64,000 nt of DNA from an uncultured Fibrobacteraceae bacterium (GTDB taxonomy: Bacteria; Krumholzibacteriota; Krumholzibacteriia; LZORAL124-64-63): contig CAZLHO010000003.1 in NCBI GenBank assembly GCA_964559455.1, positions 42,963 through 106,962 of the forward strand, in the 5' to 3' direction. The notes beneath the pieces are model-generated. The model worked only from the letters and a program-made list of their open reading frames with translations. It made no database searches and had not been told where the DNA came from. Numbering within the stretch: position 1 is the first letter of the stretch; every line of letters starts with the position of its first letter. The position numbers and the translations under genes were made by a program. This document shows positions 1,204 to 41,499 of the stretch, one piece after another.

Positions 1204-1213
1204 GAGCCGCCCC

Positions 1214-1825: not shown

Positions 1826-1828
1826 CGT

Positions 1829-3416: not shown

Positions 3417-3419
3417 CGC

Positions 3420-4700: not shown

Positions 4701-4716
4701 GGACTCTCGCTTCCGC

Positions 4717-5337
4717 TCACTTCAGGTGGCAGGCCCCGCACATGACCTCGCCCTTCGCGTCGGCGAAGCGGGTCGCGGCCGCCGCCAGGTGGCAGGCGTT
4801 GCATTGGGCGTGATAGGCGTCGGCGACCGAGCGCGGCGTGTGGCAGCCCACGCATTCGTGGCCGTCGATCGCCAGCAGTTCGGCGTGGGTCGCCATGTCG
4901 GGACCGAAGTCGTCGTCGTGGCAGGAGTCGCAGCCCAGGAAGGCGGCGCCCTCGGCGGCGGCGGCCGGGTGGCAGGCGCGGCAGCCGCGAGCCTGTCCGG
5001 AGTCCGCCAGCTCGTGGCAGCCCTCGCAGCTGTGGCCGTCGATCGCGGTCAACTCGTCGTGCCCGGCCAGGTCCGGTGTGTAGTCGTCGTCGTGACAGTC
5101 GGCGCAGGGACCGGCCTCGCCGACGAGCTCGTGGTGGCAGACCGCACAGGCGTCGGTCGCTTCCTGGTGTCCCGCATGCGCGAAGAGGACCGCGCCGCTG
5201 GAGTTGCGCAGGTAGACGGTGTCGGCGCCGGCTTCGGGGGCCGGCAGCAGGTAGCCGACCAGGCCGCAGACGCAGGCCGCGACGGCGACCGTCGTCAGCG
5301 CCAGCAGCTTCCCGCGGGGATTGGAGGGATTGGCCAT
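4717..5337 (-). CDS. Periplasmic multiheme c-type cytochrome (8 CxxCH motifs) encoded immediately upstream of rnfC
   Basis: Start at ATG 5337 (MANPSNPRGKLLALTTVAVAACVCGLVGYLL signal/anchor). Eight CxxCH motifs in ~150 residues with an internal tandem duplication (C.DCHDDD[YF].PD...H.EL.AIDGH.C.GCH). Stop lies 16 bp upstream of the rnfC start. Confidence 0.8.
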   Translation of the reverse strand: MANPSNPRGKLLALTTVAVAACVCGLVGYLLPAPEAGADTVYLRNSSGAVLFAHAGHQEATDACAVCHHELVGEAGPCADCHDDDYTPDLAGHDELTAIDGHSCEGCHELADSGQARGCRACHPAAAAEGAAFLGCDSCHDDDFGPDMATHAELLAIDGHECVGCHTPRSVADAYHAQCNACHLAAAATRFADAKGEVMCGACHLK

Positions 5338-5342
5338 CTTCG

Positions 5343-5816
5343 TCACCACTCCATGCTGTCGTCGAGGATGATCTTGTGCTGGTCGTCGGGATCGATGCGG
5401 TGCCAGTGGCAGCCTTCGCGCATGCAGAAGTAGAAGGGCACCTTGATGCTCGAGATCGCGACCATCACGCAGGCGACCTGGGCGTCGCCCCGCTCGCATA
5501 GGTGGCCTTCGACCCGCAGCGAGCGGTGGCAGTGGTCACAGCGCAGGTCGGCGACCTCCTGCCCGTCGGGCAGGCGGATGTCGCTGCGCCGCTCGAAGAC
5601 GTTCAGGAAGGGGCTGAGCTCGACCCACCCCGTCCGGCCGTCCTGGGTGACGGTCTCCAGATGGATCATGTGCTCGCGAACCAGGCTCTCGCCGCAATGC
5701 GGGCAGAAGGAGTTCAGGAAGGAGCCGGTCTTGAGCACCGTCCGCTCGTTGTAGCGGTGCGCCTTCCAGTAGATCTCCTCCCAGCGGTCACCCTTGTCGT
5801 TCTTGTCGGGGGCCAT
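5343..5816 (-). CDS. Cys-rich hypothetical protein (CPHC/CDHC zinc-ribbon-like), first gene of the cytochrome-rnf operon
   Basis: 157 aa, no signal peptide, eight Cys including CxxC pairs. 5-bp gap to the cytochrome gene. GC3-rich coding frame. Confidence 0.6.
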   Translation of the reverse strand: MAPDKNDKGDRWEEIYWKAHRYNERTVLKTGSFLNSFCPHCGESLVREHMIHLETVTQDGRTGWVELSPFLNVFERRSDIRLPDGQEVADLRCDHCHRSLRVEGHLCERGDAQVACVMVAISSIKVPFYFCMREGCHWHRIDPDDQHKIILDDSMEW

Positions 5817-12731: not shown

Positions 12732-13271
12732 CTAGCGGAACAATTCCTTCACGCCGCCCCAGGTCGTGTCCGCGTCGTCGACGGGGACCGTCAGGTAGGC
12801 GCAGGTGCCGGCGGCGGGCGTCGAGGCGCCCTGGCCGTCGCTCAGCGAGACGAAGCTGAAGCTGGGGTGGGGGATGGTGTTCAGGCGGCCGTAGTAGACC
12901 AGGAACTCGCCGGTGAAGAGGGTCAGCTCGCCGAGCACGACGGGCTGGCCGGCCGGATCCACGGGAACGTCCAGGGTCAGTTCGAGGCCGGTCTTGGCGC
13001 TGCCGATCGCCGTGCCGCCGAAGTAGATCTCGTCCAGGATCGTGATGTCGGGAAGGATGTCCAGCATGAAGGCCGCCCCGGCGATGGGGGTGTCGCTGAA
13101 GGCCAGGACCCAGGCGGTGTGCGTCTCGTCGTTGCCGCCGTTCAGGACCGCGTGGGCCTGCAGGCCGTCGGTGTCGAAGTAGACGCCGACCGAAGGGGTC
13201 TGGGCGACGGCGAGGACGGGGGTCAGGCCCAGGGCGAGGGCCAGGATCAGGATCGTTCGCATTCTCTTCAT
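12732..13271 (-). CDS. Small secreted protein (179 aa) ending in conserved tail ...VPVDDADTTWGGVKELFR
   Basis: ATG 13271. Signal peptide MKRMRTILILALALGLTPVLAVAQ. Beta-rich composition. C-terminal tail shared with the 36574..37617 protein. Confidence 0.65.
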   Translation of the reverse strand: MKRMRTILILALALGLTPVLAVAQTPSVGVYFDTDGLQAHAVLNGGNDETHTAWVLAFSDTPIAGAAFMLDILPDITILDEIYFGGTAIGSAKTGLELTLDVPVDPAGQPVVLGELTLFTGEFLVYYGRLNTIPHPSFSFVSLSDGQGASTPAAGTCAYLTVPVDDADTTWGGVKELFR

Positions 13272-13363
13272 GGGGGGCTCCTTTGGCTGCGGTCGTCCCG
13301 GCGGGGTTAAGCCGCCGGCGGGGGCGGCCGGTAAATACCGGATTATTTCCGTCTCTTTTACAA

Positions 13364-13392
13364 ACAATATTCGCATCGTCGCAGATAGTCAA
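13364..13392 (-). promoter_or_regulatory. Sigma-70-like promoter (TTGACT-N17-TATTGT, minus strand) in an AT-rich island upstream of the 13271 gene
   Basis: Minus-strand reading ttgactatctgcgacgatgcgaatattgt. Region 13290..13450 is markedly AT-rich relative to the window. Confidence 0.4.
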
Positions 13393-14673: not shown

Positions 14674-14854
14674 GGGGATCGCTCCGGAGTCTGGAGAGGT
14701 GGGATGACCGTGCCGGGCGGCAGTATAGCATCGTCCCCGGGCCGCGGGAAGGATTTGGGTGGCACTCCACGCGCCCATGTGGCTATGTTGCAACCGGAAA
14801 ACGGCGCGGCCCCCTTCCGGGACTCCGCCCCGCAACGTCTGCAAGGAGCTCCGC

Positions 14855-15979
14855 ATGAGCCAGAACCGCGAGACCAACCTCGCCCTTTTCATCGATTTCG
14901 ACAACGTCGCCCTGGGCGCGCGCGACGCGCGCAAGCGCTTCGACATCCGCCCCGTGCTCGAGCGCATCCTCGAGAAGGGCAAGATCATCATCAAGAAGGC
15001 CTATGCGGACTGGAGCTACTACCAGGACTACATGGCCGACCTGCACGGGGCCGCGATCGAGCTGATCGAGGTGCCCTCGCCCCGGGTCAGCGGCAAGAAC
15101 AGCGCCGACATCCGCCTGGTCGTGGACGCCATGGACCTGTGCTACAGCAAGGACCACATCGACACCTTCGTCATCATCTCGGGCGACTCCGACTTCTCGC
15201 CCCTGGTGTCGAAGCTGCGCGAGAACAACAAGTCGGTCATCGGCATCGGCATGAAGGATTCCAGCTCGAAGCTGCTGATCCGCAACTGCGACGAGTTCAT
15301 CTTCTACGACGACATCATGCACGCGCCGGCGCCGGCTCGCGCGGTGCGTCTGGACGACGTCCCGCCCGAGAAGCGCAAGCTCTTCAGCCTGATCCTGACC
15401 ACCCTGCAGGGCCTGATGCTCGAGCACAAGGGCGTGCTCTACTCGTCGCTGATCAAGGACACGATCAAGCGCAAGAAGCCCGACTTCAATGAGGGCAACT
15501 GGGGCTACGGCTCGTTCGGCGAGCTGCTGGAGGACGCCCAGGCCCACGGCCTGCTCTCCGCCCGCCGCGACGAGGCCGCCGGCGGCACCTGGGTCGTCGA
15601 GGCCCTGGGCGGCGAGGCCGCGCCGGCGCGCCAGGGCAACGGACGCAAGACCTCGCGCCGGCGTTCGCGCCGCCGGGGTGGCGCCGGAGCCCGCGAGGGC
15701 GCCGACAGCCAGGCCGCGGCCGAGACCCCGGCCGAGAAGAAGGCGTCGGCCGCAGCGGCCGAGAAGAAGGCGCCGGCTCCCGCGGCGGAGGCCGCCCCGG
15801 CGAAGAAGGGCGCGAAGAAGACGACGGCCGCCAAGGCCACGGCCGCGAAGAAGAAGACGACGGCGAAGAAGACGACCGCCGCCAAGAAGACGACGGCGAA
15901 GAAGACGACGGCCAAGAAGACCACCACGCGCAAGAAGACCGCCAAGAAGGCCGCGACGAAGAAGGCGGCCGGCAGCTAG
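14855..15979 (+). CDS. NYN-domain (LabA-like) + OST-HTH/LOTUS protein with Lys/Ala/Thr-rich histone-H1-like C-terminal tail
   Basis: ATG 14855 with RBS aaggag. LALFIDFDNVALG NYN signature. KRKLFSLILTTLQGLM...GYGSFGELLEDAQ OST-HTH-like region. ~110-aa tail of AKK/TTAKK repeats. Confidence 0.8.
   Translation: MSQNRETNLALFIDFDNVALGARDARKRFDIRPVLERILEKGKIIIKKAYADWSYYQDYMADLHGAAIELIEVPSPRVSGKNSADIRLVVDAMDLCYSKDHIDTFVIISGDSDFSPLVSKLRENNKSVIGIGMKDSSSKLLIRNCDEFIFYDDIMHAPAPARAVRLDDVPPEKRKLFSLILTTLQGLMLEHKGVLYSSLIKDTIKRKKPDFNEGNWGYGSFGELLEDAQAHGLLSARRDEAAGGTWVVEALGGEAAPARQGNGRKTSRRRSRRRGGAGAREGADSQAAAETPAEKKASAAAAEKKAPAPAAEAAPAKKGAKKTTAAKATAAKKKTTAKKTTAAKKTTAKKTTAKKTTTRKKTAKKAATKKAAGS
15700..15976 (+). 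repeat. Low-complexity coding repeat (AAKK/TTAKK units) encoding the Lys/Ala-rich tail
   Basis: Reiterated gccaagaag / acgacggcgaagaag units. Confidence 0.6.
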
Positions 15980-26097: not shown

Positions 26098-27051
26098 TCA
26101 GCCCAGCTTGTCGACCTCCGCGCAGGTCTTCTTGACCGCGTTGACCGACTTGCGGAAGCCCGCCTTCTCGGCCGGCGTCATCTTGACCTCGACGAACTTC
26201 TCGATGCCCTTCTTGCCCAGCACGACGGGCACGCCGACGAAGAGGCCCTTCACGCCGAACTCGCCCTGGAGCAGGGCGCAGGCGGCCATGATCTTCTTCT
26301 TGTCGAAGACGATGGCCTCGAGCATCTCGAGCGCCGACCAGGCCGGGCTGACGAAGGCCGAGCCGCTGCCCAGCAGGCCGACGATCTCGCCGCCCGCCTT
26401 GCGGGTGCGGAGCTCGATCGCCTCGAGCGTCTTCTTGTCGACGAACTGCTCCACGGGCAGGCCGGCGATGCGGCAGGTGCTGCGGATCGGCACCATGGTG
26501 TCGCCGTGGCCGCCCAGGACCATCGCCTCGACGTTCTCCACCGAAACGCCCGCGGCCTGGGCCACGAAGTAGCGGTAGCGCGCCGAGTCCAGCACGCCGG
26601 CCATGCCCATCAGGCGGCCGCGGGCCGGGCGCAGCTTCTGGTGCAGCCGGTAGACGATCGCGTCCAGGGGGTTGGCGATCGAGATCACCAGGGCCTTGGG
26701 GCAGTACTTCTTGATGCCCTCGGCCACGGCGTCGGTGATCTTCAGGTTGACGGCCAGCAGCTCCTCGCGGCTGGGGAAGGTGCCGTCGGGGCGCACGGTG
26801 CGGGGCACGCCGGCCGTGTTGATCACGTACTCGGCGCCGCGCAGGGCGCTGAAGTTCTTGGACGCCTTGTAGGCGATGTCGGCGCCGATCACCGCCGAGC
26901 CCTCGGCCACGTCCAGGCACTTGCCCTCGGCCAGGGCGGGGGGCTTGACGTCGACGAGGCCGACCTCGCGGGCCAGGCCGCGGGAGACGATTTCCGACAG
27001 CAGCACGCCGCCGATCTGGCCGCCGCCGACGAGTCCGATCTTGTTGACCAT
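26098..27051 (-). CDS. mdh: Malate dehydrogenase (LDH-like family)
   Basis: 317 aa. N-terminal KIGLVGGGQIGG Rossmann. Full-length similarity to LDH-type NAD-MDH. Confidence 0.95.
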   Translation of the reverse strand: MVNKIGLVGGGQIGGVLLSEIVSRGLAREVGLVDVKPPALAEGKCLDVAEGSAVIGADIAYKASKNFSALRGAEYVINTAGVPRTVRPDGTFPSREELLAVNLKITDAVAEGIKKYCPKALVISIANPLDAIVYRLHQKLRPARGRLMGMAGVLDSARYRYFVAQAAGVSVENVEAMVLGGHGDTMVPIRSTCRIAGLPVEQFVDKKTLEAIELRTRKAGGEIVGLLGSGSAFVSPAWSALEMLEAIVFDKKKIMAACALLQGEFGVKGLFVGVPVVLGKKGIEKFVEVKMTPAEKAGFRKSVNAVKKTCAEVDKLG

Positions 27052-27181
27052 GAGCCTATCTCCTCGCTCGCGTGGGACGACCCCCCGTGGACGTCGGGGG
27101 GCAGGGGATGTTATTTGTGCAACGTTGCGAATCTACTGGACTTCGCGACGGTTTTCCACGGAAAACTGACCGCGCCCGGAG

Positions 27182-27844
27182 CTAGGCGCCGGAGCCGAAG
27201 ATCCCCTCGATCGCGATCCGCGACCAGTCCTCGAAGCTGCCGCCGTCGGGCGCGGCGCCGGGACCGGTCATGCCGACCAGGTCGCCGACGGGCAGCCACA
27301 GCGCCCGGTGGGGCTCGGCCTGGGCCGAGACCAGGGCGACCAGCGCGTCGTCATCCTCGGGCCGCGCATCCAGGTCCACCCGGAAGACCACGCCGAAGTG
27401 CACGCTCGAGACGTCCTCGCGGTCGGAGTTGATGAACCCCGCCGGGCGCAGGGCCTCCGAAGCCACCGACAGTCCGGTCTCCTCGTCCAGTTCGCGCAGG
27501 GCGCCGGCCAGCACCAGGCCGTGCACCGCGGCCTCGCCCCGATCGCGGTCCAGGGGCTCGATGTGTCCGCCGAAGCCCACCGACCACAGGCCGCCCAGCC
27601 GGCTCTCGGAGTGGTCGCCGCGCCGCTGGTAGGCCAGCACGCGCGCCTGGGCCCCGCGGCCGCGCTGCAGCACGAGGTAGGGGATGATCTGCTTGAAGTG
27701 CGAGTTGCGCTCCATGAAGTCGCGCTCGGCGAAGAAGAGGTGGGGATGGATCGCCTCGAGGTCGATGGAGACCTCGGGCAGGAAGCCCTGGGGGCTCAGC
27801 CCCGGAAAGAGGTGCTTGCGGTCGAGGACGAGGATGCTGCGCAA
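27182..27844 (-). CDS. NUDIX hydrolase
   Basis: NUDIX box GGHIEPLDRDRGEAAVHGLVLAGALRELDEETGL. Confidence 0.8.
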   Translation of the reverse strand: MRSILVLDRKHLFPGLSPQGFLPEVSIDLEAIHPHLFFAERDFMERNSHFKQIIPYLVLQRGRGAQARVLAYQRRGDHSESRLGGLWSVGFGGHIEPLDRDRGEAAVHGLVLAGALRELDEETGLSVASEALRPAGFINSDREDVSSVHFGVVFRVDLDARPEDDDALVALVSAQAEPHRALWLPVGDLVGMTGPGAAPDGGSFEDWSRIAIEGIFGSGA

Positions 27845-27871
27845 TGTGGCCTCCGTAGCGTGGGCGCGGCG

Positions 27872-28708
27872 TCAGTCGGCGGCGCGCAGGCCGGCCGTGG
27901 CGGCCCGGAAGGCCTGGCGCTCGCGGCGGCGGGGGTGGTCGTTCATGTCGTAGGCCGCCAGCTCGGCGCGGGCCCTCGCGATGCGGTCGTCGGTGTTCGG
28001 ATGGGTGCTGAGCCAGCCGGCGAAGCCGGTGGGGCCGACGCCGTGCATCTGCGCCAGCTTGCCGAAGAAGTCCAGCATCGCGGCCGGGTCGTAGCCCGCC
28101 ATGTAGGCGTGCTTGACGCCGAACTGGTCGGCCTGGAATTCGTGGTCGCGGCTGTTCTTCATCATGAAGAGCCCGCCGCCCATGCCGGCCACCTGGCTCC
28201 AGAGCTGCTCGCCGGCGGCGTCGCCGAGCACGAGCTGGGCGGCCATCTGCAGGCCCATGGCGCTCTGCATCTGCCGCACCGAGTGGCGGCCGACCACGTG
28301 GCCGACCTCGTGGCTCAGGACGCAGGCCAGCTCGGCCTCGTCGTCGGCCATGGCCAGCAGGCCGGTCGTCACGTAGATGAAGCCGCCGGGCGCGGCGAAG
28401 GCGTTGACCACGTCGCTCTGCAGCACGGTGAAGGTGTAGTCCACGTCCTTGCGCTCGCTGTGGGCGGCGACCTGCGCGCCCACGCCCTGCACGTAGGCGC
28501 TCAGGGCCGCGTCCTGGACCACGGGGTATTCCTGGCGGATCCCCTTGTCGGTCTCCAGGCCCATGCGGACCTCGGTGGGGGTGTCGATCAGGATCAGGCT
28601 GCGCTCGCCGTGCGGGCCGGTGGTGGCGCAGCCGGCCAGCAGCGCGGCCAGCGCGGCGAGAAGGACCAGCGCGGACGCGGCGGCCGGGATTCGACGACGG
28701 CGGTTCAT
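27872..28708 (-). CDS. M48-family zinc metalloprotease lipoprotein
   Basis: Lipobox ALLAGC. HEVGHVVGRH HExxH motif. M48/BepA-like length and pattern. Confidence 0.85.
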   Translation of the reverse strand: MNRRRRIPAAASALVLLAALAALLAGCATTGPHGERSLILIDTPTEVRMGLETDKGIRQEYPVVQDAALSAYVQGVGAQVAAHSERKDVDYTFTVLQSDVVNAFAAPGGFIYVTTGLLAMADDEAELACVLSHEVGHVVGRHSVRQMQSAMGLQMAAQLVLGDAAGEQLWSQVAGMGGGLFMMKNSRDHEFQADQFGVKHAYMAGYDPAAMLDFFGKLAQMHGVGPTGFAGWLSTHPNTDDRIARARAELAAYDMNDHPRRRERQAFRAATAGLRAAD

Positions 28709-28778
28709 GGCGTTCCTTTCCCTCGGAAGGCGGCGGCGGGCGACGCCGCACAGGATAGCAGATCGAGGCGGCCCCGGC

Positions 28779-30083
28779 CTAGGGCAGGAAGCCGCGCACG
28801 TCCGAGAGCTTCTGCGGCAGGTACTCCTCGATCACGTAGTTCAGCCCGTGCTTGGCCAGGGCCTGCTGCTCGGCGCGCACCCCCATCTTGATCATCTGCA
28901 GCAGCGCCAGCTGCCACGGCTTGTGGTGGATCACGAAGGGGTCGTTCTTCAGGGCGTCCTTGGCCCGCTTGATGTCCACGTCCTTCAGGGGGTGGGTGGG
29001 CAGCTCGTAGTCCACGATGTCCTGCGGCGTGATGCCCAGGAAACGGGCCTGGGGCACGCAGAAGAAGCGGTTCAGGTGGGCGGCGTTGCCGCTGCCCACC
29101 TTCAGGGTGCGGTAGATGTTCATGAAGCCGTAGGGGTCGCCGTCGACGAAGACGTAGACCGGGATCTTCTTGGCGTCCGACAGGCGGCGCACGAAGCGGC
29201 GGCAGGCGCGCGTGGGCACGCCGCCCATCGAGATCAGGATGCAGCCGGCGTGCTTCCAGTAGTTGTGCTTCACCAGGCGCTGGAACATGCCCGCGGTCTC
29301 GATGCAGAGGATGAACTTGGCGTCGGTCTCGAAGCCCAGCTCCTCGACCGAGATCGGGATCGAGTAGGCGCCGCTGCCGAACTTCGTGCAGTCGATGCGC
29401 AGCTCCTCGCCGGTCTCGCCGTCGCGGTCGATCACGACCAGGCGCCCGGCCACGTCGCCGCCCTTCTCCTCGGGCACGAAGCCCATCTGCTCGCGGTTCA
29501 CGCCGTAGAAGGCCTCGACGTCCTCCATCACCGCGTCCGACTCGGGCTGCTCGCCGAAGCGGGCGTCCGCCCAGTTCTTGCTGACGTAGTAGGCCTCTCG
29601 CTTGGTGGCGATGTCGTCGGTCTCGACCAGTTCCTTGGACAGGGCCATCATCTTCAGGGTCTGGGCGAAGGTCTTGACCGTGCTCACGGTCAGGGTGCGC
29701 TCCTTGGTGCGGCCGCGCAGCTCGAAGAAGCCGACCTTGGGCTGGTAGCTGACGTTCTGCAGCGAGCGCAGCGGGAAGCGCAGCGACGGCTTGTCGCCCT
29801 TCAGGATCCGGCCTCGCACCGTGGCCGCCTCGTCGTGGATGCGCCCGAGCAGGGCGCCGCGGTCGTCGGGACCCTTCTTGGCGGCTCCGGCGGCCTTGCC
29901 CACGGCGGCCTTTGCCTGAGCGGTCTTCACGGGGGCCGTCCTGGCCGGCGCTTTTCCGGCGGCGGCCTTCTTCGCCGGCGCCGTCTTCTTCGGCGGCGGC
30001 CCGAAGGCCAGCTCGGCCTGCTTGTCGCCGGCCTTGGCGGGCGCCTTCTTCCCGGCGGTCTTCTTGCGCTTGTCCTGCGGCAA
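28779..30083 (-). CDS. top6A: Type IIB DNA topoisomerase VI subunit A (Spo11/Top6A homologue) with Lys/Ala-rich N-terminal extension
   Basis: TKREAYYVS (catalytic Tyr, 5Y-CAP). ILCIETAGMF and YVFVDGDPYG (Toprim DxD). ~75-aa KKAPAKAG/KTAPAKKAAAGK tail. TTG start at 30083. Confidence 0.8.
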   Translation of the reverse strand: MPQDKRKKTAGKKAPAKAGDKQAELAFGPPPKKTAPAKKAAAGKAPARTAPVKTAQAKAAVGKAAGAAKKGPDDRGALLGRIHDEAATVRGRILKGDKPSLRFPLRSLQNVSYQPKVGFFELRGRTKERTLTVSTVKTFAQTLKMMALSKELVETDDIATKREAYYVSKNWADARFGEQPESDAVMEDVEAFYGVNREQMGFVPEEKGGDVAGRLVVIDRDGETGEELRIDCTKFGSGAYSIPISVEELGFETDAKFILCIETAGMFQRLVKHNYWKHAGCILISMGGVPTRACRRFVRRLSDAKKIPVYVFVDGDPYGFMNIYRTLKVGSGNAAHLNRFFCVPQARFLGITPQDIVDYELPTHPLKDVDIKRAKDALKNDPFVIHHKPWQLALLQMIKMGVRAEQQALAKHGLNYVIEEYLPQKLSDVRGFLP

Positions 30084-30110
30084 CGCTTTGCCTCCGTGCG
30101 CGGCGAGGGG

Positions 30111-31619
30111 CTAGAGCCCGTAGAGCTCGCCGTACTTCTGGTTCAGGTAGTCCGCGAAGGGCGCGATCGACAGGTCGCGTCCGGTGACCTCGCGGCACAG
30201 GTCGGGGGCGGCCAGCAGCCGGCCCTTGACGTGGATCCGGCCCCGCAGCCAGTTCAGCAGCGGCGCGAACTCGCCCCGCGACGCCTGCTGCTGCAGGTCG
30301 CCCAGGTCCTCGGCGGCCTTCGCGTAGAACTGCGCCGCGTAGAGGTTCCCCAGGCTGTAGGTCGGGAAGTAGCCGAAGCTGCCGAAGGCCCAGTGGATGT
30401 CCTGCAGCACGCCCTCGGCGTCGTCGGTCGGCGTCAGCCCCAGGTACTCGCGCATCTTCTCGTTCCAGAGCCCGGGCAGGTCGGCCACGGCGATCTCGTC
30501 GCGGAAGAGCGCCGTCTCGAGCTCGGTGCGCAGCACGATGTGCAGGTTGTAGGTCATCTCGTCGGCCTCGATGCGCACGGGCGAGCGGCGCACGACGTTG
30601 GCGGCGCGATACAGGGCCTCGTCGTCGGCGTCGCCGAAGGCCTCGGGGAAGAGGCGCGTCAGCAGCGGCCGGCAGTGGGACAGGAAGGCGCGGCTGCGGC
30701 CGACCATGTTCTCCCAGAGCCGGGACTGCGATTCGTGGATGCCCAGGCTCGCCGCCTCTCCCATCGGGGTGCCGGCGTGCTCGACCGGGAAGCCCTGCTC
30801 GTAGAGGCCATGGCCGCCCTCGTGCAGGGTCGAGAAGAGCGAGTTCGAAAGGTCGCCGGTGTCGTAGTGGGTCGTCAGGCGCACGTCGCGCGGATCGACT
30901 CCCGAGGTGAAGGGATGCCGCGAGACGTCCAGGCGGCCGCGCCGGAAATCGAAGCCCATGATCTCCAGCACCCGCGTCGCTAGCTCCTGCTGCCGGGCGA
31001 CGGGGAAGCTGCCGCGCAGCAGGGCGTCGTCGTGGCGTTCGCCGCGGTCCACGACGGCCGCGACCAGGGGCACGAGCAGATTCTTCAGCTCGGCCAGCAG
31101 GGGCAGCAGGGCCGCGGTGGTCATGCCGGGCTCGTATTCGTCGAGCATGGCGTCGTAGGGCTCGCCGGCGTAGCCCACGCATTCGGCCTCGCGGCGGCGC
31201 AGCGCCGCCAGGCGCTCCAGGTTGGGGGCGAAGCGCGCCCAGTCGCGGGCGGCGCGGGCCTCGGCCCAGGCCTGCTGGGCCAGGCTGCCTTCGCGGGTCA
31301 GCTCGGTCACCAGCTCCTTCGGCACCTTCACGGCCCGGTCGCGGTCGCGGCGCGCCTCGCGCACGTTGGCCGCCTGCTCGGGCGTCAGGCCGTCGGCGGC
31401 CGCGAGCTCGTCGATCATCGCGCCCAGGGCCGGGTCGACCACCCGGTCGTGGACGATGCCGGACAGGGTGGCCCGCGAGCGGGCCCGCCCGGCGATCCCC
31501 TCGGGGGGCATGTAGGTCTCCTGATCCCAGGACAGCAGGGACTGGGCGGCGTTCAGGTCGTGGACCTCGCGGATATGCGCGAGGAAATCGGCATGGATTC
31601 CGGCGATACGTTCGGACAT
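30111..31619 (-). CDS. M32 carboxypeptidase (Taq-type thermostable carboxypeptidase family)
   Basis: HEGGHGLYE HExxH motif, HESQSRLWEN and DIHW motifs. ATG 31619 preceded by GGGAGG. Confidence 0.85.
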   Translation of the reverse strand: MSERIAGIHADFLAHIREVHDLNAAQSLLSWDQETYMPPEGIAGRARSRATLSGIVHDRVVDPALGAMIDELAAADGLTPEQAANVREARRDRDRAVKVPKELVTELTREGSLAQQAWAEARAARDWARFAPNLERLAALRRREAECVGYAGEPYDAMLDEYEPGMTTAALLPLLAELKNLLVPLVAAVVDRGERHDDALLRGSFPVARQQELATRVLEIMGFDFRRGRLDVSRHPFTSGVDPRDVRLTTHYDTGDLSNSLFSTLHEGGHGLYEQGFPVEHAGTPMGEAASLGIHESQSRLWENMVGRSRAFLSHCRPLLTRLFPEAFGDADDEALYRAANVVRRSPVRIEADEMTYNLHIVLRTELETALFRDEIAVADLPGLWNEKMREYLGLTPTDDAEGVLQDIHWAFGSFGYFPTYSLGNLYAAQFYAKAAEDLGDLQQQASRGEFAPLLNWLRGRIHVKGRLLAAPDLCREVTGRDLSIAPFADYLNQKYGELYGL

Positions 31620-31680
31620 GGGGAACCTCCCGGGTTCGGGCACGGGGAGGAAAAGGTGACGCCGCCGGGAGGGGGCGGCC

Positions 31681-33393
31681 TTACATCTTGCGGCTGCGTT
31701 CCAGGGTGTCGGTGAGCGTGACGATGATGTCCTCGCGCTCGTCCTCCTTCAGGCCCAGGATGTCGCGCAGGGCATCCCCGATGTGCGGGATGTACTTCTG
31801 GATGTAGCTCTGCTTCTTCAGGGCCTCGCGCTCGCGCACCCGGCGCCGGATGTGGCGCTGCAGCTGCCGGCCGGCCTCCTGCAGGCCCAGCCGGATCTCC
31901 TTGACGATCTCCGGGTAGTGGGCCACGGCCTCCTTGCTCTCCGACGTGAAGGGCACCCACACCGAGGCCATGTGCACCAGGATCACCAGCGGGCCGGTGG
32001 GCAGCGCGCCCCGCGACTGCTGCATGCCGTAGCTGCGCCAGTTGTTGGCGAGCACCGCCTTGTGGATGGCGCAGGCCGAGGCCTGGTAGAGCAGGGGCAC
32101 GCGGTTGGCGAAGCGCAGCACCTCGGCCAGCTCGTCGCCGGGCAGGTCGCCGCCGTAGGCCAGCCCGACCTCGATCTGGAAGGGGTTGCCGCGGTAGACG
32201 GCCGCGGGACGGGTCACCGCCGTGTAGAAGTCGGCCCGGATGCGCTGCTCCAGGCCCTTGAGCACCAGCTCGGCCCCGATCGGCGACAGGCAGTCGGTGG
32301 GCGGCGAGGGGATGCGCGTCTCGCCGATGGCGTCCAGCAGCGCCTGCACGTCCTCCTGGCCCAGCAGCCGCGGATTCTTGCGGGCGGGAAAGCCCGCGGC
32401 CTCCAGGACCTGGCCCGCGGTCTTCGGGCCGACGCGGCAGAATTCGTTGCGCAGGAACGCGGTCAGGTTGCGGCTCTTGGTCTCCTTGAGCATCTGCAGC
32501 ATGCGGCCCAGCTCGACCCCGTAGGGGTGGGGCCGGATCTCGGCGGCCTCGACCGGCAGCTCGTCGGCGGCCCGGGCGTAGACCACCTCCTCGCCGCGCG
32601 GGTTGCGGTAGACCAGGCGCACGTGGGGGTTGGCCACGGCCGTCTGCTGCAGGTAGGTGTCGACGGAGTGGTGGCCGCGCTTGTACGAACCCGCCAGCTC
32701 GATCTCCACGCGGGTGCCGTGCTCCACGTCCCAGGGCGCGGTCTCGTCCTTCTGGACCACGGGCTCGTTGCGCTTCATGTCCAGGGTCAGCTCGCAGCGC
32801 CGGGCCTCGGGCATGTCCTTGGTGCGGCTCAGGACGACCACCGGCTTGCCCGTGGTCAGCTGCCCGTACATGCCGGCGGCCGAGATGCCGATGCCCTGCT
32901 GGCCCCGGCTCTGGCGCAGGCTGTGGAACTTCGAGCCGTAGAGCAGCTTGCCGAAGATGCGCGGCACCTGGGCGCGCACGATGCCCGGGCCGTTGTCCTG
33001 GACCACGACCCGGAAGCGCTCCTCGCGCTGCGGAGGGGCGGCGCCGCGGCGTCGGCCGTTGCTCTTGCCGTTGCCGTTGTCCTCGGCGTGGGCCTCGCCG
33101 CCGTCCATCTCCAGGGAGGCCGCCGCGCGGTTCTTGCCGTTGCCGTTGGCCTGCACGGGCTGGATCTCGACCAGGATGTCGGGCAGGATCCCGGCCTCCT
33201 CGCAGGCGTCCAGGGCGTTGTCGACGGCTTCCTTGATCGTGGTCAACAGGGCCTTGGCCGGGGAGTCGAAGCCCAGCAGGTGGCGGTTCTTCGTGAAGAA
33301 CTCGCTGATCGAGATCTCCCGCTGCTTCTTCGCCATGCTCTGCGCGGTGGCGGCGGTGTGGTTGCGGGATGACTTGCGCGCGGTGGCAGGCAT
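31681..33393 (-). CDS. top6B: DNA topoisomerase VI subunit B (GHKL ATPase + transducer)
   Basis: Bergerat-fold N-box EAVDNALDA, G1 DNGPGI, G2 GQQGIGISAAG, H2TH-like and transducer regions. ATG 33393 with RBS aaggaacggag. Low-complexity insert between the N-box and G1. Confidence 0.8.
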   Translation of the reverse strand: MPATARKSSRNHTAATAQSMAKKQREISISEFFTKNRHLLGFDSPAKALLTTIKEAVDNALDACEEAGILPDILVEIQPVQANGNGKNRAAASLEMDGGEAHAEDNGNGKSNGRRRGAAPPQREERFRVVVQDNGPGIVRAQVPRIFGKLLYGSKFHSLRQSRGQQGIGISAAGMYGQLTTGKPVVVLSRTKDMPEARRCELTLDMKRNEPVVQKDETAPWDVEHGTRVEIELAGSYKRGHHSVDTYLQQTAVANPHVRLVYRNPRGEEVVYARAADELPVEAAEIRPHPYGVELGRMLQMLKETKSRNLTAFLRNEFCRVGPKTAGQVLEAAGFPARKNPRLLGQEDVQALLDAIGETRIPSPPTDCLSPIGAELVLKGLEQRIRADFYTAVTRPAAVYRGNPFQIEVGLAYGGDLPGDELAEVLRFANRVPLLYQASACAIHKAVLANNWRSYGMQQSRGALPTGPLVILVHMASVWVPFTSESKEAVAHYPEIVKEIRLGLQEAGRQLQRHIRRRVREREALKKQSYIQKYIPHIGDALRDILGLKEDEREDIIVTLTDTLERSRKM

Positions 33394-33501
33394 GAGACTC
33401 CGTTCCTTCCTGCCGGGAAGGGCTGACCAGAGGTTGCTGTTCGTGCGGCCCAACAGTACGGGAGGGCCCGGGCGATTGCAAGCCGGGCCTGACGGCGGGG
33501 G

Positions 33502-35421: not shown

Positions 35422-36540
35422 ATGTCCAGGCCGGTCCTGCTCCAGCTCACGGGTCTCACCAGCCTCAAGTACGGCGGCATCGAACGCTACCTGTGCGCAG
35501 TGTCCGCGGAATGCAGCCGGCGCGGCTGGAGCACCATCGTCCAGTTCGAAGCCCCGCCCGCTACGGAGAATATCGTCGCCGATTTCACGGCCGCCGGAGC
35601 GCGGCTGGAGTACTTCCCCACGAATCGTAACGGCTGGTCCGCGCGGCGGGGCATCATTTCCTGCCTGCGCCGCCACCGACCGGACATTCTCCACGTCCAT
35701 TTCACGAGCCGAGACAGCCTGCTGCTCACGCCGCGCCTGGCCCGGCTGCTCGGGACGAAGACGTCCGTCTCGACCCTTCACGGATTGGTCCATGATCAGG
35801 CTGGATGGGTCTGGCGGGTCGGCTACCGGGCCTTCGACCACATCGTTCCCGTCAGCGACGCCGTCGCCCGGTCCGCCGAGAGGGGCGGGTTCGGGCGCAA
35901 CCTGCGGCAACCCCTGTATCTGGGGCTCTTCGGCGACCCCGCGCCCGATCCGGCGCGCCGGGCGAGCACGCGGGCGGAGTTCGGCATTCCCGAACAGGCG
36001 CCCGTCGCCGCCTGCATCACCTTCGATGCGCGCATCAAGGGCGTCGACGTCCTGATGAGGGGCTTCGCGCTGCTCCGGGAGTCCGTGCCCGAGGCGAGGC
36101 TTCTCGTCGTGGGAATCGATCCGCGCAATTCTGATCTGCCGCGGATGGCAGACGAACTGGGTGCCGGGGACGGAGTGATCTGGGCGGGAATCCGGGACGA
36201 TGCCTGGCGCCTGTTCGACGCCGCCGACGTCTATGTCCAGCCCTCGCGATCCGAGGGGCTGCCGCTGGCCATCCTGGAGGCGATGGCGCTCGCCCTGCCC
36301 GTCGTGGGCAGCGATGTGGGCGGCATCCCCGAGGCGGTGGTCGATGGGGAGACGGGCCGCCTCGTGCCGGTCGAGGACCCGGTCGCCCTGGCCGACGCCG
36401 TGCAGGGGCTCTTCGCCGACGCCGGTCGAAGACGGGCCTGGGGCGAGGCCGGGCGCCGCCGCTACCAGGACATCTTCAAAGGGCCCGAATCCGTGCGGCG
36501 GCTGGTTTCCGAGTATTACGGCATTCCCGAACTGCAGTAG
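35422..36540 (+). CDS. GT4-family glycosyltransferase
   Basis: C-terminal EGLPLAILEAMA...PVVGSDVGGIPE signature. Confidence 0.85.
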   Translation: MSRPVLLQLTGLTSLKYGGIERYLCAVSAECSRRGWSTIVQFEAPPATENIVADFTAAGARLEYFPTNRNGWSARRGIISCLRRHRPDILHVHFTSRDSLLLTPRLARLLGTKTSVSTLHGLVHDQAGWVWRVGYRAFDHIVPVSDAVARSAERGGFGRNLRQPLYLGLFGDPAPDPARRASTRAEFGIPEQAPVAACITFDARIKGVDVLMRGFALLRESVPEARLLVVGIDPRNSDLPRMADELGAGDGVIWAGIRDDAWRLFDAADVYVQPSRSEGLPLAILEAMALALPVVGSDVGGIPEAVVDGETGRLVPVEDPVALADAVQGLFADAGRRRAWGEAGRRRYQDIFKGPESVRRLVSEYYGIPELQ

Positions 36541-36573: not shown

Positions 36574-37617
36574 CTAGCGGAAGAGGGCCTTGACGCGGCC
36601 CAGGGTCCGGGACTCGGCCGGCACCGGCACGTTGTCGCAGAGGATCTCGAGAGTGAAGGCGCCGTCGCCCTCGAAGTCGCCGCCCTCGGTGGTCAGGGGG
36701 CGGAAGGCGTCCACGCCCAGGTAGAAGACCCCGGCTTCGCCGGTGTCGTTCTCGTAGTCCAGCACCTCGCCGACCCCGGCCAGGCCCCGGTCGACGGCGG
36801 CCACGCAGACGGCGTCGGGGCCGACTCCGGAGAAAAGCCAGAGGGCGCCGTCGAAGACGATCTGGCTCAGCTCGGCGCGGAAGACGGCGGTATCCGGCAG
36901 GGTGACGGCGAACCAGACCTCGCCGCCCTTCTCCAGGTAGTCGGAGCAGCCGGCCGCGGCCGTCAGCAGGTCGGGCCGGTCGAAGATGTTGTCCAGGGCC
37001 GTGGCCCCCTCGACGTTGCAGGCCAGCGGCCGGGCGGCGGCGGCGACGGCGGGGTCCAGCCCCGCGGCGCCGGCGGCCAGGCTCAGCTCGTAGGCGCCCG
37101 CCGCGGCCGTGGCCGGATCCTGGCCCAGCCCGTCGACCACCAGCAGGTAGTCGCCGGCCTCGAGCTCGACGGCGAATTCGGCGTTGGCCCAGGCCACGCA
37201 GGCGTCGCTGTCGCAGTCCGAGAGCAGCAGCACGTCCAGGTCGGGCACCGGGTCCAGCAGCACGTGCAGCCGGGCGGCCTCGGGCAGGTGCAGGCGATAG
37301 AGATCCTCGCCGCCGGCCAGGAACCAGGCGGCGCAGGGGTAGTCCGAGACGCGGTCGGGCGCGGTCGAGGTGTCGCCGCTCCACGTGGTGTCGAATCCGG
37401 CGGTCACGGTGATCAGGGGCGCGGCGGCGCAGTCGATGGGCACGCGCAGCGGCGCGACGGCCGGCTTCGCGGGCAGGACGCGGGCGGGCTCGTCCTTGGG
37501 GAGCGCGACGGGGGGATGAGTGACGGGGACGCCGGCGCCTTGGCCCGGGCCTGCGGCGGCCAGGACCCAGAGGGCGATAGCGAACGGGATCGAGCTGTCT
37601 AAACGAAGGCGGCGCAT
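36574..37617 (-). CDS. Secreted protein with two PPC-like repeats, ending in conserved tail ...VPVPAESRTLGRVKALFR
   Basis: ATG 37617 with RBS gagga. Signal peptide. Internal duplication (SDYPCAAWF... / CSDYLEKGGEVWF...). C-terminal tail shared with the 12732..13271 protein. Confidence 0.65.
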   Translation of the reverse strand: MRRLRLDSSIPFAIALWVLAAAGPGQGAGVPVTHPPVALPKDEPARVLPAKPAVAPLRVPIDCAAAPLITVTAGFDTTWSGDTSTAPDRVSDYPCAAWFLAGGEDLYRLHLPEAARLHVLLDPVPDLDVLLLSDCDSDACVAWANAEFAVELEAGDYLLVVDGLGQDPATAAAGAYELSLAAGAAGLDPAVAAAARPLACNVEGATALDNIFDRPDLLTAAAGCSDYLEKGGEVWFAVTLPDTAVFRAELSQIVFDGALWLFSGVGPDAVCVAAVDRGLAGVGEVLDYENDTGEAGVFYLGVDAFRPLTTEGGDFEGDGAFTLEILCDNVPVPAESRTLGRVKALFR

Positions 37618-37902: not shown

Positions 37903-38331
37903 ATGATCGATAGACTCCTGCGCCAGCCTACCGACAACACCCTGATCCAGCTCTTCCGCTACACCTTCGTCGGCGGTTTCGCCTTCGTGGTGGATTTCGG
38001 CTCCCTCTACGCGCTGACCGAATTCGCCGGCCTCCACTACCTGGTGTCGGCGGCCGTCGCCTTCCTGCTCGGGCTCTGCGTCAACTACCTGCTGAGCGTG
38101 CGCTGGGTCTTCAATTCCCGCACCATGAGCAACCGCTGGCTCGAGTTCGGGCTCTTCGCCCTGGTCGGCGTCGTGGGTCTGGGGCTGAACGAACTGATCA
38201 TCTGGTTCTTCACCGAGAAGGTCGGCCTGCACTACATGGGCTCGAAGGCGGTCTCCGCGATCATCGTCTACCTTTGGAACTTCTTCGCCCGCAAGCGCCT
38301 CCTATTCAGCCGGGAGCAAAACGATTCATGA
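37903..38331 (+). CDS. GtrA-family membrane protein
   Basis: 142 aa, 4 TM, GtrA-like pattern ([16 protein letters not shown]; [22 protein letters not shown]). Confidence 0.85.
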
Positions 38332-39935
38332 AGAAAGCCGTGATCATCGGGGCGGGCCCCGCCGGTCTGACCGCCGCCTGGGAACTGCTCGACCGCACCG
38401 ACGTGAAGCCGGTCGTCTTCGAGGCGACCGGGGCCATCGGCGGCATCTCGCAGACGGTCGAGCACAACGGCAACCGCATGGACATCGGCGGGCACCGTTT
38501 CTTCTCGAAGTCGGACCGCGTCATGGACTGGTGGCGCAACATCATGCCGCTGCAGGGGGCGCCCGCCCGCGACGATCTCGCCCTCGGCCGCGAGGTGCCG
38601 CTCGCGCAATCGACGCGCCAGCGGCCCCTGGGCGACGGCGGCGCGGTCGATGTCCCGGCCCCCGATCCCGAGCGGACCGACAAGGTGATGCTCTACCGCC
38701 AGCGCCTGTCGCGGATCTTCTACCTGCGCAGCTTCTTCAGCTACCCCGTCTCGCTCACGTTGCAGACGATGCGCAACCTGGGCCTGGTCCGGATGGCCCG
38801 CATCGGGATCAGCTACGTCTGGGCGCGGCTGTTCCCGATCCGCGAGGAGAAGTCGCTCGAGGACTTCTTCATCAACCGCTTCGGCCGCGAGCTCTACGCC
38901 ACCTTCTTCAAGGACTACACCGAGAAGGTCTGGGGCGTGCCCTGCGACATCATCAAGCCCGAGTGGGGCGCCCAGCGGATCAAGGGCCTGAGCATCACCA
39001 AGGCCGTCATCCACGCCGTCGGCCAGCTGACCCGCCGCGACCGGTCCATCGACCAGAAGAACATCGAGACCAGCCTGATCGAGCAGTTCCTCTATCCCAA
39101 GCTGGGCCCGGGGCAGATGTGGGAGGAGGTCGCCCGGCAGGTCGCCGGCGGCGGCGGCGAGGTGCACTTGCACAGCGAGGTCAGCGGCCTGATCCTGCGC
39201 GACGGAGCCGTTGTCGGGGTGCGCGTGCGCGACGCGCGGACCGGGCAGACCGTCGATCACGACTGCGACCTGGTCTTCTCCACGATGCCGATCAAGGACC
39301 TGGTCGAGCGCGTCGACGGCGAGGTCCCGGCCGAGGCGCAGGAGGTCGCCGGCGGCCTGATGTACCGAGACTTCATCACGGTCGGGCTGCTGCTGGACAA
39401 GCTGCTGATCAGCAACGAGACCGACCGGCCGACCGTCGGCGGCATCGTCCCCGACAACTGGATCTACATCCAGGAGCGCGACGTCAGGCTGGGGCGCCTG
39501 CAGATCTTCAACAACTGGAGCCCCTACATGGTCGCCGATCCGTCCCAGACCTGGATCGGCATGGAGTATTTCTGCAACGAGGGCGATGATCTGTGGTCGA
39601 TGTCCGACGCCGACTTCGCCGACTTCGCCGTCGCCGAGCTCGCCAAGATCGACATCTGCGATCCGGCGGACGTCCGCGACAGCGTCGTGATCCGGATGCC
39701 CAAGACCTACCCCGCCTATTTCGGCACCTACGACCGCTTCGACGAGCTGCGCCGCTGGGCCGACGGGATCGGGAACCTCTATCTGATCGGCCGCAACGGG
39801 ATGCACCGCTACAACAACCAGGACCACTCCATGCTCACCGCCATGACCGCGGTCGACAACATCCTCGCCGGGCGCCTGGACAAGGCGAACATCTGGGACG
39901 TGAACGCGGAAGAGGAGTACCATGAGCAGAAGTGA
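38328..39935 (+). CDS. FAD/NAD(P)-binding oxidoreductase (amine-oxidase/UDP-galactopyranose-mutase-like)
   Basis: ATGA overlap with gtr[17 protein letters not shown] dinucleotide-binding motif. ~535 aa. Confidence 0.8.
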
Positions 39936-41499
39936 TCGGGACTGGCCGGCGCCGCGGTCCGGCCGCTACGTGCTGCTCTACCTGATCCTCGGCGCGGTCC
40001 TGCTGCCCTTCTTCCGGCACCAGATCAACTCGGACGGCCTGTCCTACATCTCCATCGCGATGCGTTACGCCGCCGGCGACCTGGCCGGAGCGGTCAACGG
40101 CTACTGGGGGCCGCTGCTCTCGTGGCTGATGGTCCCGCTGATCGCCCTGGGGATCGAACCGCTGCTGGCCGGCAAGATCGTCAGCCTGGGCCTGGGCGCC
40201 GCCGCCGCCGCGGGGCTGGTCCGGTTGGCCCGGTTCATGCCCCTGACCGAGAAGCTGCGGTGGATCACGCTGCTCTCGCTGCTGCCCTTCCTGGCGACGG
40301 CCTCGCTGCGCGCGCTCTTCCCCGACCTGCTGGTGGTGGCCCTCATGCTCCACTACCTGGCCTTCGTCTTCGCCGACGGCTACGAGGACCGCCTGCGCAA
40401 CGGCCTGTGGTGCGGACTCCTGGGCGGCCTGCTCTACTACGCCAAGGCCTACGGCTTCTACGTCTTCCTGCTGCACTTCGCCGTGATGGGCCTGCTGCGC
40501 CTGCTGCGCGCGGACGACGGGCGCCGCCGGCTGGCCCTGGTGCGCAACCACGCCCTCGGGCTGGCGGTCTTCGCCGTGCTGGCGGGCGCCTGGATCGGCG
40601 TGCTCAGCGCCCGCTACGGGGAGCCGACGATCAGCACGACCGGCGTCTTCAACCACGCCCTGGCCGGGCCCGCCTCGCGCGGGCAGCCGATGCATTATCT
40701 GGGCTTCCTGCCGCCCCAGGACGAGCGGGCCTTCAGCGCCTGGGAGACGCCCACCACGATCCCCATCGCCGACTGGTCGCTGCGCGATCCCGGCGGCCTG
40801 CGCCACCAGCTCGGGTTGCTGAAGGACAACCTCAAGCTGCTGGGCAGGGACATCACGGCCTATTCCCGCCTGATGGCGCTGATCCTCGTCGGGTCGCTGC
40901 TGCTGTGCGTCCAGCCGCTCCGCCGGCTGCTGCGCGACGGCCCCACGCTCTATCCCCTGGTCACCGTCGCCGTCTTCCCGGCCGGCTACCTGCTGATGCT
41001 GCTCGAGGTCCGCTACGTCTGGATCTGCCCGCTGCTGATCACCCTGATGGGGGCCCGGCTGCTCGGGATGTTCATGGAATCCGGCCTGGGCACCCGCCCT
41101 CGCCGCATCGCCGCGATCGCCCTGTTCGTCGTCTCGGTGATCATCTATCCGGTCAAGCTGATCGTCCAGGGCGTCGGCCAGGGCGAGCGGGTGCGCGCCG
41201 TCGCGGCGACGCTGGCCGACCTGGGGCTGGAGCGCGGCGCGCGCACGGCGTCGAACCGTGAATGGGCCGACTCCCTGTACCTGGCCTACCATCTGGATTC
41301 GCGATATTACGGCGAGCGGGGCGACCTGACCGACGAGCAGGTCGCGGCCGCGCTGCAAGAGTACCGGGTGCGCTACTATCTGGTCTGGGATCCGGAGCCG
41401 GCCGCGGCCGCGCCGCGGGAGGGATGGACCGAGATCACGGCCGGCAGGGTGCCGCGCCTGGCGGTCTACGAGGCGCCCCGGGAAAGCGTGGGACAATGA
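39922..41499 (+). CDS. Polytopic membrane glycosyltransferase (GT-C, ArnT/PMT-like) with C-terminal soluble domain
   Basis: ~11 predicted TM helices. Forms the GtrA/oxidoreductase/GT-C cassette. 14-bp overlap upstream. Confidence 0.7.

Follow-up and report, generated by a model that had tools for sequence, protein, structure and literature searches.

We report a short C-terminal tag on a secreted protein encoded in a 64,000-nucleotide stretch of DNA from an uncultured Fibrobacteraceae bacterium (contig CAZLHO010000003.1, positions 42,963 to 106,962). We refer to this whole 64-kb stretch as the window, and all coordinates below are counted from its first nucleotide. The protein, hereafter the target, carries two tandem beta-sandwich domains resembling the PPC fold, and its C-terminal tail is a real, conserved copy of an uncatalogued tag found across phyla at the extreme C-terminus of unrelated exported proteins. 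In our preferred interpretation, to which we give about an even chance, the tag would serve as a new C-terminal signal for sorting or retention and would be read by a shared factor of the cell envelope. The gene and its tail are as follows.

36574..37617, minus strand: whole gene of the target, a secreted tandem-PPC-like protein of 347 aa with the C-terminal tag (open reading frame [ORF] and translation)
36577..36630, minus strand: tail VPVPAESRTLGRVKALFR, residues 330-347 (translation; logos of 48 orthologs and of 180 tails)
36577..36606, minus strand: tag core T-L-G-R-V-K-A-L-F-R-COOH, with the consensus [ST]-W-G-x-[VIL]-K-x-L-[YF]-R (logos, conservation, and AlphaFold2 [AF2] model)

Conservation of the tail among orthologs

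The tail occupies exactly the last 18 codons of the gene, directly before the TAG stop codon (36574-36576), and the protein ends in ...LEILCDNVPVPAESRTLGRVKALFR. It consists of a Pro-containing linker, VPVPAESR, followed by the core. A word-indexed protein search with the target recovered only P0001 from public data (347 aa, 99% identical), while an exhaustive HMMER search identified 447 homologs at E≤1e-3. The sequence-only reading of this DNA had described the tail as conserved, and the orthologs bear this out: at least 48 proteins of 280 to 410 aa align to the last residue and share the tail, and about 20 further homologs, which are longer, partial, or slightly extended, have it as well. 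The logo of the 48 orthologs reads V-[PA]-[VTA]-E-x-[TR]-[ST]-[WFL]-G-x-[LVI]-[KR]-x-[LM]-[YF]-R-COOH. Every ortholog that carries a name is annotated as “hypothetical protein.”

Conservation in the family peaks in the last ten residues, at 2.67 bits per column in a 57-sequence alignment versus 2.16 and 1.98 in the two domains. Between pairs of genomes, the body of the protein is 35 to 39% identical by tblastn, compared to 83 to 87% for topoisomerase VI subunit A (TopoVI-A) and 71 to 78% for subunit B (TopoVI-B; 61% in the locus L126). The target is an exported protein that evolves quickly but whose tail changes slowly.

Distribution and strict terminal position of the tag

We scanned one genome per GTDB species with a back-translated DNA pattern, W-G-x-Φ-K-x-L-[YF]-R-stop, and obtained at least 126 matches in at least 119 loci. 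Among the matches listed, nearly all are true ORF ends, and the tag is essentially confined to lineages of the Fibrobacteres-Chlorobi-Bacteroidetes (FCB) group. The main taxa among them are Candidatus Eisenbacteria, Krumholzibacteriia, “uncultured Fibrobacteraceae,” and Latescibacteria, joined by Kapaibacterium/Ignavibacteriales/Melioribacteraceae, Gemmatimonadota, and metagenome-assembled genomes (MAGs) labeled only as unclassified “bacterium.” Out-of-group matches carry Polyangiaceae, Verrucomicrobiia, and Phycisphaera labels (L025, L041, and L069, on contigs of 2 to 4 kb) or a Humidesulfovibrio label (L049, a 22-kb contig on which the ORF is only 62 aa long). These could be binning errors or chance matches instead of a spread beyond the FCB group.

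A set of 180 non-redundant tails defines the tag more closely. Arg is found at position -1 in all 180 and Gly at -8 in 175; position -5 is Lys in 160 tails and Arg in the other 20, and Arg also takes this position in 17 of the 48 orthologs. Conservation extends to positions outside the search pattern, with [ST] at -10 in 161 of the 180 tails and a [VT]-[PA]-x-[ER] box at -16 to -13. The full consensus of approximately 16 to 17 residues is [PV]-[VT]-[PA]-x-[ER]-x-x-[ST]-W-G-x-[VIL]-K-x-L-[YF]-R-COOH, and PTESTWGAIKALYR is an example. The segment before the core is variable and Pro rich, and about half of the tails have a Cys 17 to 21 residues from the end.

A motif this short invites the explanation that the likeness arose by chance or that a DNA repeat is being translated at the 3′ ends of genes, and its shortness is the only point in favor. 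A relaxed pattern matched 149 times at a terminus versus 3 times internally in 1.23 million six-frame residues, and only 0.014 terminal matches are expected by chance among the 5,913 ORF ends. The internal cases resemble read-through, fused tandem paralogs, or short extensions. Within the tails, all synonymous codons are in use, third positions are free to vary, and Ser codons come from both the AGY and the TCN families; past the stop codon, the DNA is unconserved. These features indicate that the peptide, rather than a DNA element, is under constraint. As a control, we matched the pattern against 2.9 million viral contigs, which yielded six matches, five of them genuine-looking tails. The terminal-match statistics and the synonymous variation thus refute chance and DNA repeats alike, and we leave this explanation next to no weight. 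The five viral-classed contigs whose proteins end in a genuine-looking tail (IMG/VR; L128 to L132) could represent prophages or bacterial DNA of the same lineages that was misclassified.

The tag is equally terminal in a family of approximately 132 aa from Ignavibacteria/Melioribacteraceae, in which all 120 members (P0287 to P0406) end in KRTWGSIKA[ML]FR. Members of this family (L018, L024, L051, L062, L106, and L111) have an N-terminal hydrophobic segment and are all annotated as hypothetical; their gene adjoins a Maf-like gene in L024, L062, L106, and L111.

We found no model for the tag in Pfam (2025 copy) or in NCBIfam release 20. Our literature searches, which covered about 8 million full-text papers and preprints, returned no description of it, though one may exist elsewhere.

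Tagged proteins mostly have export signals and are structurally unrelated

A simple heuristic recognized a Sec-like signal peptide in 93 of 107 complete carriers of the tag (approximately 87%), and only 7 have a lipobox. The mature proteins are mostly about 200 to 260 aa long. Among 93 carriers compared to Pfam, the most frequent domains are the lamin-tail domain (LTD; seven carriers) and the right-handed beta-helix (five); the remainder include NosD, NHL propeller, CHRD, spondin, PPC, cytochrome c7, and CBM4_9, among others. The widest coverage by any one family is 7 of the 93 carriers in Pfam and 2 of the 93 in NCBIfam, and it follows that no model in either collection represents the tail.

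Homologs of these passengers end in other signals elsewhere. In other bacteria they bear PEP-CTERM (ScyF at 6e-55, PepA-like, and FxDxF-like proteins), and the PPC-like domain of the target occurs in other phyla within large proteins that have a type IX secretion system (T9SS) tail of type A, as recognized by TIGR04183 in P0016, P0039, P0074, and P0092. The same passengers with tails that differ by lineage form the swappable-anchor pattern of established sorting signals.

Genomes hold several carriers: the window has two within 64 kb, and the locus L039 has as many as six within 8 kb. Tail genes form tandem arrays in L039, L086, L048, and L070. The six paralogs of L039 (L039:1649-6975) include several with a lipoprotein signal (...LALGC) and one that terminates in the core plus “SP.” A 420-aa ORF in the same locus has both an internal and a terminal copy of the tail, as if two tandem genes had fused.

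The window supplies its own example of unrelated carriers:

12732..13376 (tail 12735-12788), minus strand: the other tail carrier, a small secreted protein unrelated to the target (six-frame ORF scan)

Among all window ORFs of at least 60 aa in six frames, only this one and the target match G-x-[VIL]-K-x-[LMIVA]-[FYW]-[RKH] within three residues of the end; the sequence-only reading had listed the target tail at 36577-36630 as the second copy. The likelier start of the other carrier is at coordinate 13271 (MKRMRTIL), which gives the N-terminus MKRMRTILILALALGL; its C-terminus is ...LTVPVDDADTTWGGVKELFR, and its tail is VPVDDADTTWGGVKELFR. BLAST found no significant similarity between the two window carriers, and the tail alone is detectably common to them. 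This second carrier has no Pfam or NCBIfam match at E≤1; a homolog in L065, 34% identical, is also tail bearing.

Architecture of the target protein

The target gene starts at an ATG at 37617, with a Shine-Dalgarno-like GAGGA a few bases 5′ of it. Three features precede the tail.

37534..37617, minus strand: Sec-type signal peptide, approximately residues 1-28 (read from the sequence; helix at 10-21 in the AF2 model)
37060..37440, minus strand: beta-sandwich domain 1, like the PPC/collagen-binding domain, approximately residues 60-186
36634..37032, minus strand: PPC-like beta-sandwich domain 2, approximately residues 196-328 (hhalign and AF2 model)

The signal peptide, MRRLRLDSSIPFAIALWVLAAAGPGQG, is laid out as MRRLRLDSS, a hydrophobic stretch (IPFAIALWVLAAAG), and PGQGA. 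Inspection of its sequence revealed no lipobox Cys, and the N-termini of the orthologs are all similarly signal-like. The AF2 model built from an alignment (predicted local distance difference test [pLDDT] score of 89.7 and predicted template modeling score of 0.81) has two beta-sandwiches and then a short tail helix at residues 339 to 345 (pLDDT 79 to 87). Prediction from the single target sequence reached a pLDDT of only 35, so a usable model needed the alignment. Conserved residues are C63, Y93, C95, D126, D128, C135, C140, and VDG161-163 in domain 1 and C224, D256, C265, C271, D276, E284, and D303 in domain 2. A profile-profile comparison by hhalign finds the two domains to be mutually homologous (99.4%; E 5.4e-21), while BLAST of the two halves of the target against each other found no significant similarity.

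The signal peptide and the two repeated Cys-containing beta domains that were read from the sequence alone are therefore both present. The description “PPC-like” holds in part. Foldseek with the target model returned the tandem collagen-binding domains of ColG among its matches, and the beta-sandwiches are superposable on solved PPC and collagen-binding domain structures; on the other side, no Pfam or NCBIfam family matched the target at E≤1, the PPC model PF04151 included. The resemblance lies at the level of the fold only. Relative to the PPC/clostridial collagen-binding domain, the target has extra conserved Cys pairs and lacks an attached peptidase.

Comparison with known C-terminal signals

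The tag invites comparison with the tripartite sorting signals, which consist of a signature motif, a transmembrane helix, and a basic, usually Arg, cluster at the C-terminus and of which PEP-CTERM is associated with exopolysaccharide (EPS) loci (10.1101/2023.06.07.544157). Like LPXTG, PEP-CTERM, GlyGly-CTERM, and MYXO-CTERM, the tag is short, lies at the extreme C-terminus, and is carried by many unrelated Sec-exported proteins per genome. Further likenesses to the tripartite signals are the common passengers (ScyF-, PepA-, FxDxF-, and spondin-like) and a lineage-restricted distribution. In contrast to these signals, neither the last 18 residues of the target nor the consensus of the 180 tails contains a hydrophobic run, and in place of an Arg cluster there is a single Lys (-5) and a single Arg (-1), which bring the net charge to about +2. 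Nor is an intramembrane protease implicated, and no model of this kind scores on the carriers. We reject a PEP-CTERM-type signal on the ground that the tail has no transmembrane segment.

The C-terminal domain (CTD) of T9SS cargo is a second point of reference. T9SS is specific to the FCB-group clade (PMC12398890), and its cargo uses a Sec signal plus a C-terminal signal (PMC12618676), as the tag carriers do. A minimal T9SS signal is conceivable, in which the tail mimics the last strand of a CTD and its reader would be a shuttle like PorV, a sortase like PorU, or a lineage-specific paralog. Besides the shared export route and the FCB confinement among the matches listed, this explanation draws on cargo in the same genomes: 29 proteins with a FlgD_ig/type-A-like CTD (median, 704 aa) lie near tail genes in 21 of the 119 listed loci, among them L002, L011, L017, L065, L067, L083, and L116. 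This local cargo terminates in [KR]-x-x-L-[LV]-[KR]-COOH, and its last three residues resemble the L-[YF]-R of the tag, being hydrophobic-hydrophobic-basic in both. The occurrence of the target's own domain as T9SS cargo in other phyla points the same way. However, a CTD is a folded domain: TIGR04183 has 72 positions and matched 64 to 80 residues in the control proteins P0016, P0039, P0074, and P0092, whereas approximately 16 residues cannot make a beta-sandwich, and the likeness amounts to three residues. None of the 93 carriers matched TIGR04183, PF18962, TIGR04131, or NF033708 (types A, B, and C), and the target has no match to them either. We reject a T9SS CTD of type A, B, or C for this tail, which is too short and matches no model. 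The carriers are also mostly about 200 to 260 aa long, against the median of 704 aa for CTD cargo in the same loci, and this gap in size suggests two distinct classes. We regard a minimal T9SS signal as unlikely.

The beta-signal of outer membrane proteins is a C-terminal strand with alternating hydrophobic residues and a terminal aromatic residue, usually Phe, on a beta-barrel passenger. The tag resembles it in having about ten conserved C-terminal residues with Gly and aromatic positions and in a periplasmic reading. It differs in that its hydrophobic residues, at -9, -6, -3, and -2, do not alternate and that its passengers have soluble sandwich, helix, or propeller folds. The Arg at -1 in 180 of 180 tails and these soluble folds lead us to reject a beta-signal.

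MinD (...KGFLKRLFGG), FtsA (...GSWIKRL...), and PBP5 are tethered by C-terminal amphipathic membrane-targeting helices. The tag could likewise bind directly, without dedicated machinery, its short amphipathic and cationic helix settling into the membrane-leaflet interface or adhering to lipopolysaccharide or an anionic exopolysaccharide. It is similar to these helices in length, C-terminal place, and Trp/Phe-Ile/Leu-Lys-x-Leu-Phe/Tyr composition, and the AF2 model places a helix in the target tail. The residues Trp, [VIL], Leu, and [YF] fall at i, i+3, i+6, and i+7, the Lys and Arg bring the net charge of the final 10 residues to about +2, and a flexible Pro-rich linker precedes the core. The failure to find a processing enzyme in the carrier neighborhoods is also in keeping with direct binding. 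Against it, the hydrophobic moment of the tails did not separate helix from strand: its value at 100 degrees (0.49) does not surpass that at 180 degrees (0.50) and exceeds that of shuffled tails (0.37 ± 0.17) by a modest margin only. Ten residues are very short for a stable in-plane anchor, and three positions that hardly vary across unrelated carriers and phyla (Gly -8, Arg -1, and [ST] -10) exceed what lipid binding should demand. The helices of MinD and FtsA work on the cytoplasmic side, and any one helix of this type is confined to a single orthologous family, whereas the tag is kept over many non-homologous exported proteins in several phyla. Direct binding is, in our estimation, doubtful.

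The C-terminus of Braun lipoprotein, ...K-Y-R-K-COOH, offers another conserved basic/aromatic tripeptide on an envelope protein, where it serves for anchoring through a Lys that is cross-linked to peptidoglycan. We reject a cross-link of this type for the tag, since its last residue is Arg and the exchange of Lys for Arg at -5, in the 20 tails and 17 orthologs given above, is incompatible with a linkage through an epsilon-amino group.

Two other roles would not require a sorting system. The tail may be a structural or assembly element that caps or staples the last domain or that mediates oligomerization or docking between carriers. The fairly confident AF2 prediction of the tail, the Cys found near it in about half of the tails, and the tandem arrays of tail genes all accord with such a role. 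The same tail, however, follows beta-helix, NHL propeller, LTD, cytochrome c7, and PPC folds, which makes a common intramolecular packing site implausible, and the linker before the core is variable and Pro rich. We consider a structural role quite improbable. Alternatively, the tail may mark proteins for quality control or turnover, with a tail-specific protease of the periplasm or a PDZ protein as its reader, or it may be a pro-peptide whose removal activates the carrier. PDZ and Prc-type proteases bind free C-termini, and a strictly C-terminal motif with an invariant last residue would suit such readers. Yet a degron common to dozens of unrelated, mostly non-enzymatic surface modules is hard to explain, some homologs extend past the core, and no protease of this kind recurs near carriers in the listed loci. 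A turnover tag is thus very improbable indeed.

A candidate sorting or retention signal

The maintenance of the tag over non-homologous carriers and across phyla points to a specific protein reader instead of generic physicochemistry. The passenger repertoire, made up of typical surface or extracellular modules, argues for a destination at the surface, in the matrix, or in the envelope. On this basis, we infer that the tag acts in sorting or retention through a dedicated reader. The signal peptide would first carry the protein over the inner membrane, and both PPC-like beta-sandwich domains would fold. The short Pro-containing linker would then present a compact, cationic, partly helical tail with its invariant C-terminal Arg. 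One shared envelope factor, either a receptor or a processing enzyme, would read this tail on all carriers and route or retain them at the cell envelope, the surface, or the matrix.

Four observations weigh against a sorting signal of this kind. The window copy is itself divergent, with Leu at -9 where Trp is usual. In a minority of homologs, the core is followed by 5 to 15 hydrophilic residues; these extended proteins (P0076, P0089, P0103, P0110, P0117, P0141, and also in L072) keep SW[GSA]xΦKxx[FY] and have no terminal Arg, implying that a free Arg carboxylate is not universally required. Clustering of neighbors and inspection of the tandem arrays across the 119 listed loci revealed no reader or processing enzyme, T9SS-type cargo being the only recurrent neighbor, and no sortase, exosortase, rhombosortase, or CPBP-type enzyme recurs within 8 kb of the carriers. 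Finally, the tag lacks the transmembrane helix and basic cluster that underlay earlier reliable in silico calls of sorting signals (10.1101/2023.06.07.544157).

A wider proposal, to which we give slightly less than even weight, is that the tag belongs to an undescribed sorting or anchoring system of the FCB group. Such a system would rely on a dedicated receptor or processing enzyme, serve tens of substrates in each genome, operate alongside T9SS, and span Krumholzibacteriota, Eisenbacteria, Latescibacterota, Ignavibacteria, and relatives. Its signal would be a peptide of approximately 16 residues with an invariant terminal Arg and no transmembrane segment, an architecture unmatched among known bacterial sorting signals.

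A dedicated envelope machine came to light through each of LPXTG, PEP-CTERM, GlyGly-CTERM, and the T9SS CTD, and short C-terminal signals are the main route to predicting surface proteomes from genomes. In phyla for which metagenomes are almost the only source of knowledge, the tag marks a class of exported proteins, and nearly all of its carriers are annotated as “hypothetical protein.” A simple hidden Markov model or regular expression would label this class and make the reader findable by phylogenetic profiling.

Genomic context of the target

The target gene lies at the border of a polysaccharide locus, close to a topoisomerase VI block.

35422..36540, plus strand: family 4 glycosyltransferase (GT4), convergent neighbor (Pfam Glycos_transf_1, 2e-35)
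37903..38331, plus strand: GtrA-family membrane protein, divergent neighbor (Pfam GtrA_DPMS_TM, 3.7e-26)
31681..33453, minus strand: TopoVI-B (Pfam; tblastn, 61 to 78% identity to the ortholog contexts)

Pfam agrees with the sequence-only reading on the identity of both immediate neighbors, the glycosyltransferase and GtrA. Two methyltransferase genes and the GT4 gene sit between the target and TopoVI-B. The polysaccharide locus also encodes a FAD oxidoreductase, an AsnB-like protein, and more glycosyltransferases, and it reaches to approximately 61.6 kb via Wzy_C, a MurJ-like flippase, a FemAB-like acyltransferase, further GT4 genes, and an AAA+SPOR protein. Within it, a 525-aa polytopic membrane protein (39922-41499, plus strand) has no Pfam match and, by position, could be an unclassified glycosyltransferase or polymerase.

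We inspected the contexts of the orthologs P0005 (L120), P0008 (L122 to L124), P0007 (L125), and P0009 (L126) and of the distant P0023 (L127). In L120, L122 to L124, L125, and L126, the ortholog lies directly 5′ of TopoVI-B and is co-directional with it. The block goes on in L120, L122, and L125 with an M32 carboxypeptidase and TopoVI-A, followed by the M48 and NUDIX genes that are also found at 26 to 33.5 kb of the window; the L126 contig stops before the rest of the block is visible. The other flank of the ortholog holds GT4/DUF354/MBOAT genes in L122, MurJ-Wza-Wzz-Wzy in L125, AsnB-GT4-Wzy-Wza in L126, and sulfotransferases with beta-helix/FlgD_ig proteins in L120. Neither a polysaccharide nor a TopoVI context surrounds the distant ortholog in L127.

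A tail-bearing protein thus stands between polysaccharide genes and the TopoVI block in four of the five lineages inspected. This fits the expectation, voiced from the sequence alone, that orthologous EPS loci carry such a protein at the same place, with the qualification that the most constant neighbor of the target is the TopoVI-B gene and not a glycosyltransferase. The recurrence of this setting indicates that the link to EPS loci is positional and conserved, though the tail itself is found genome-wide. The same genome-wide presence, on unrelated secreted proteins of several phyla, undercuts the earlier suggestion that position and tail together imply anchoring in the matrix: the tag is not special to the target or to EPS loci, and the two do not form a joint argument. 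The tandem domains and the place at the locus border suggest that the target may bind polymers at the surface or in the matrix, where the tag would keep it cell associated. The analysis in any case singles out the target, a PPC-like protein that is conserved and fast evolving and that borders a polysaccharide locus, as a likely component of the envelope or matrix.

The conserved block of the window (26098-33453, minus strand) comprises TopoVI-B, an M32 carboxypeptidase, TopoVI-A, an M48 peptidase, a NUDIX protein, and a malate/lactate dehydrogenase. The carboxypeptidase gene splits the two topoisomerase VI subunits, and the order is the same in L122 and L125 and, to the extent visible, in L120. 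We rejected the adjacent M48 and M32 peptidases as processors of the tail, as they are members of this conserved housekeeping block and are not recurrent neighbors of other carriers. The TopoVI-A encoded in the window is 82 to 89% identical to many metagenomic proteins, and those with a name come from Candidatus Krumholzibacteriia/-ota MAGs, which places the origin of the window in a Krumholzibacteriota-like member of the FCB group.

Two further loci lie elsewhere in the window. An Rnf/Nqr-type operon (628-5535, minus strand; RnfA/E, FMN_bind, RnfD, and RnfC-like) adjoins a cytochrome c7-like gene. At 14729-15979 on the plus strand, an NYN-domain protein has a long Lys/Ala/Thr-rich C-terminal tail that resembles histone H1/HC2.

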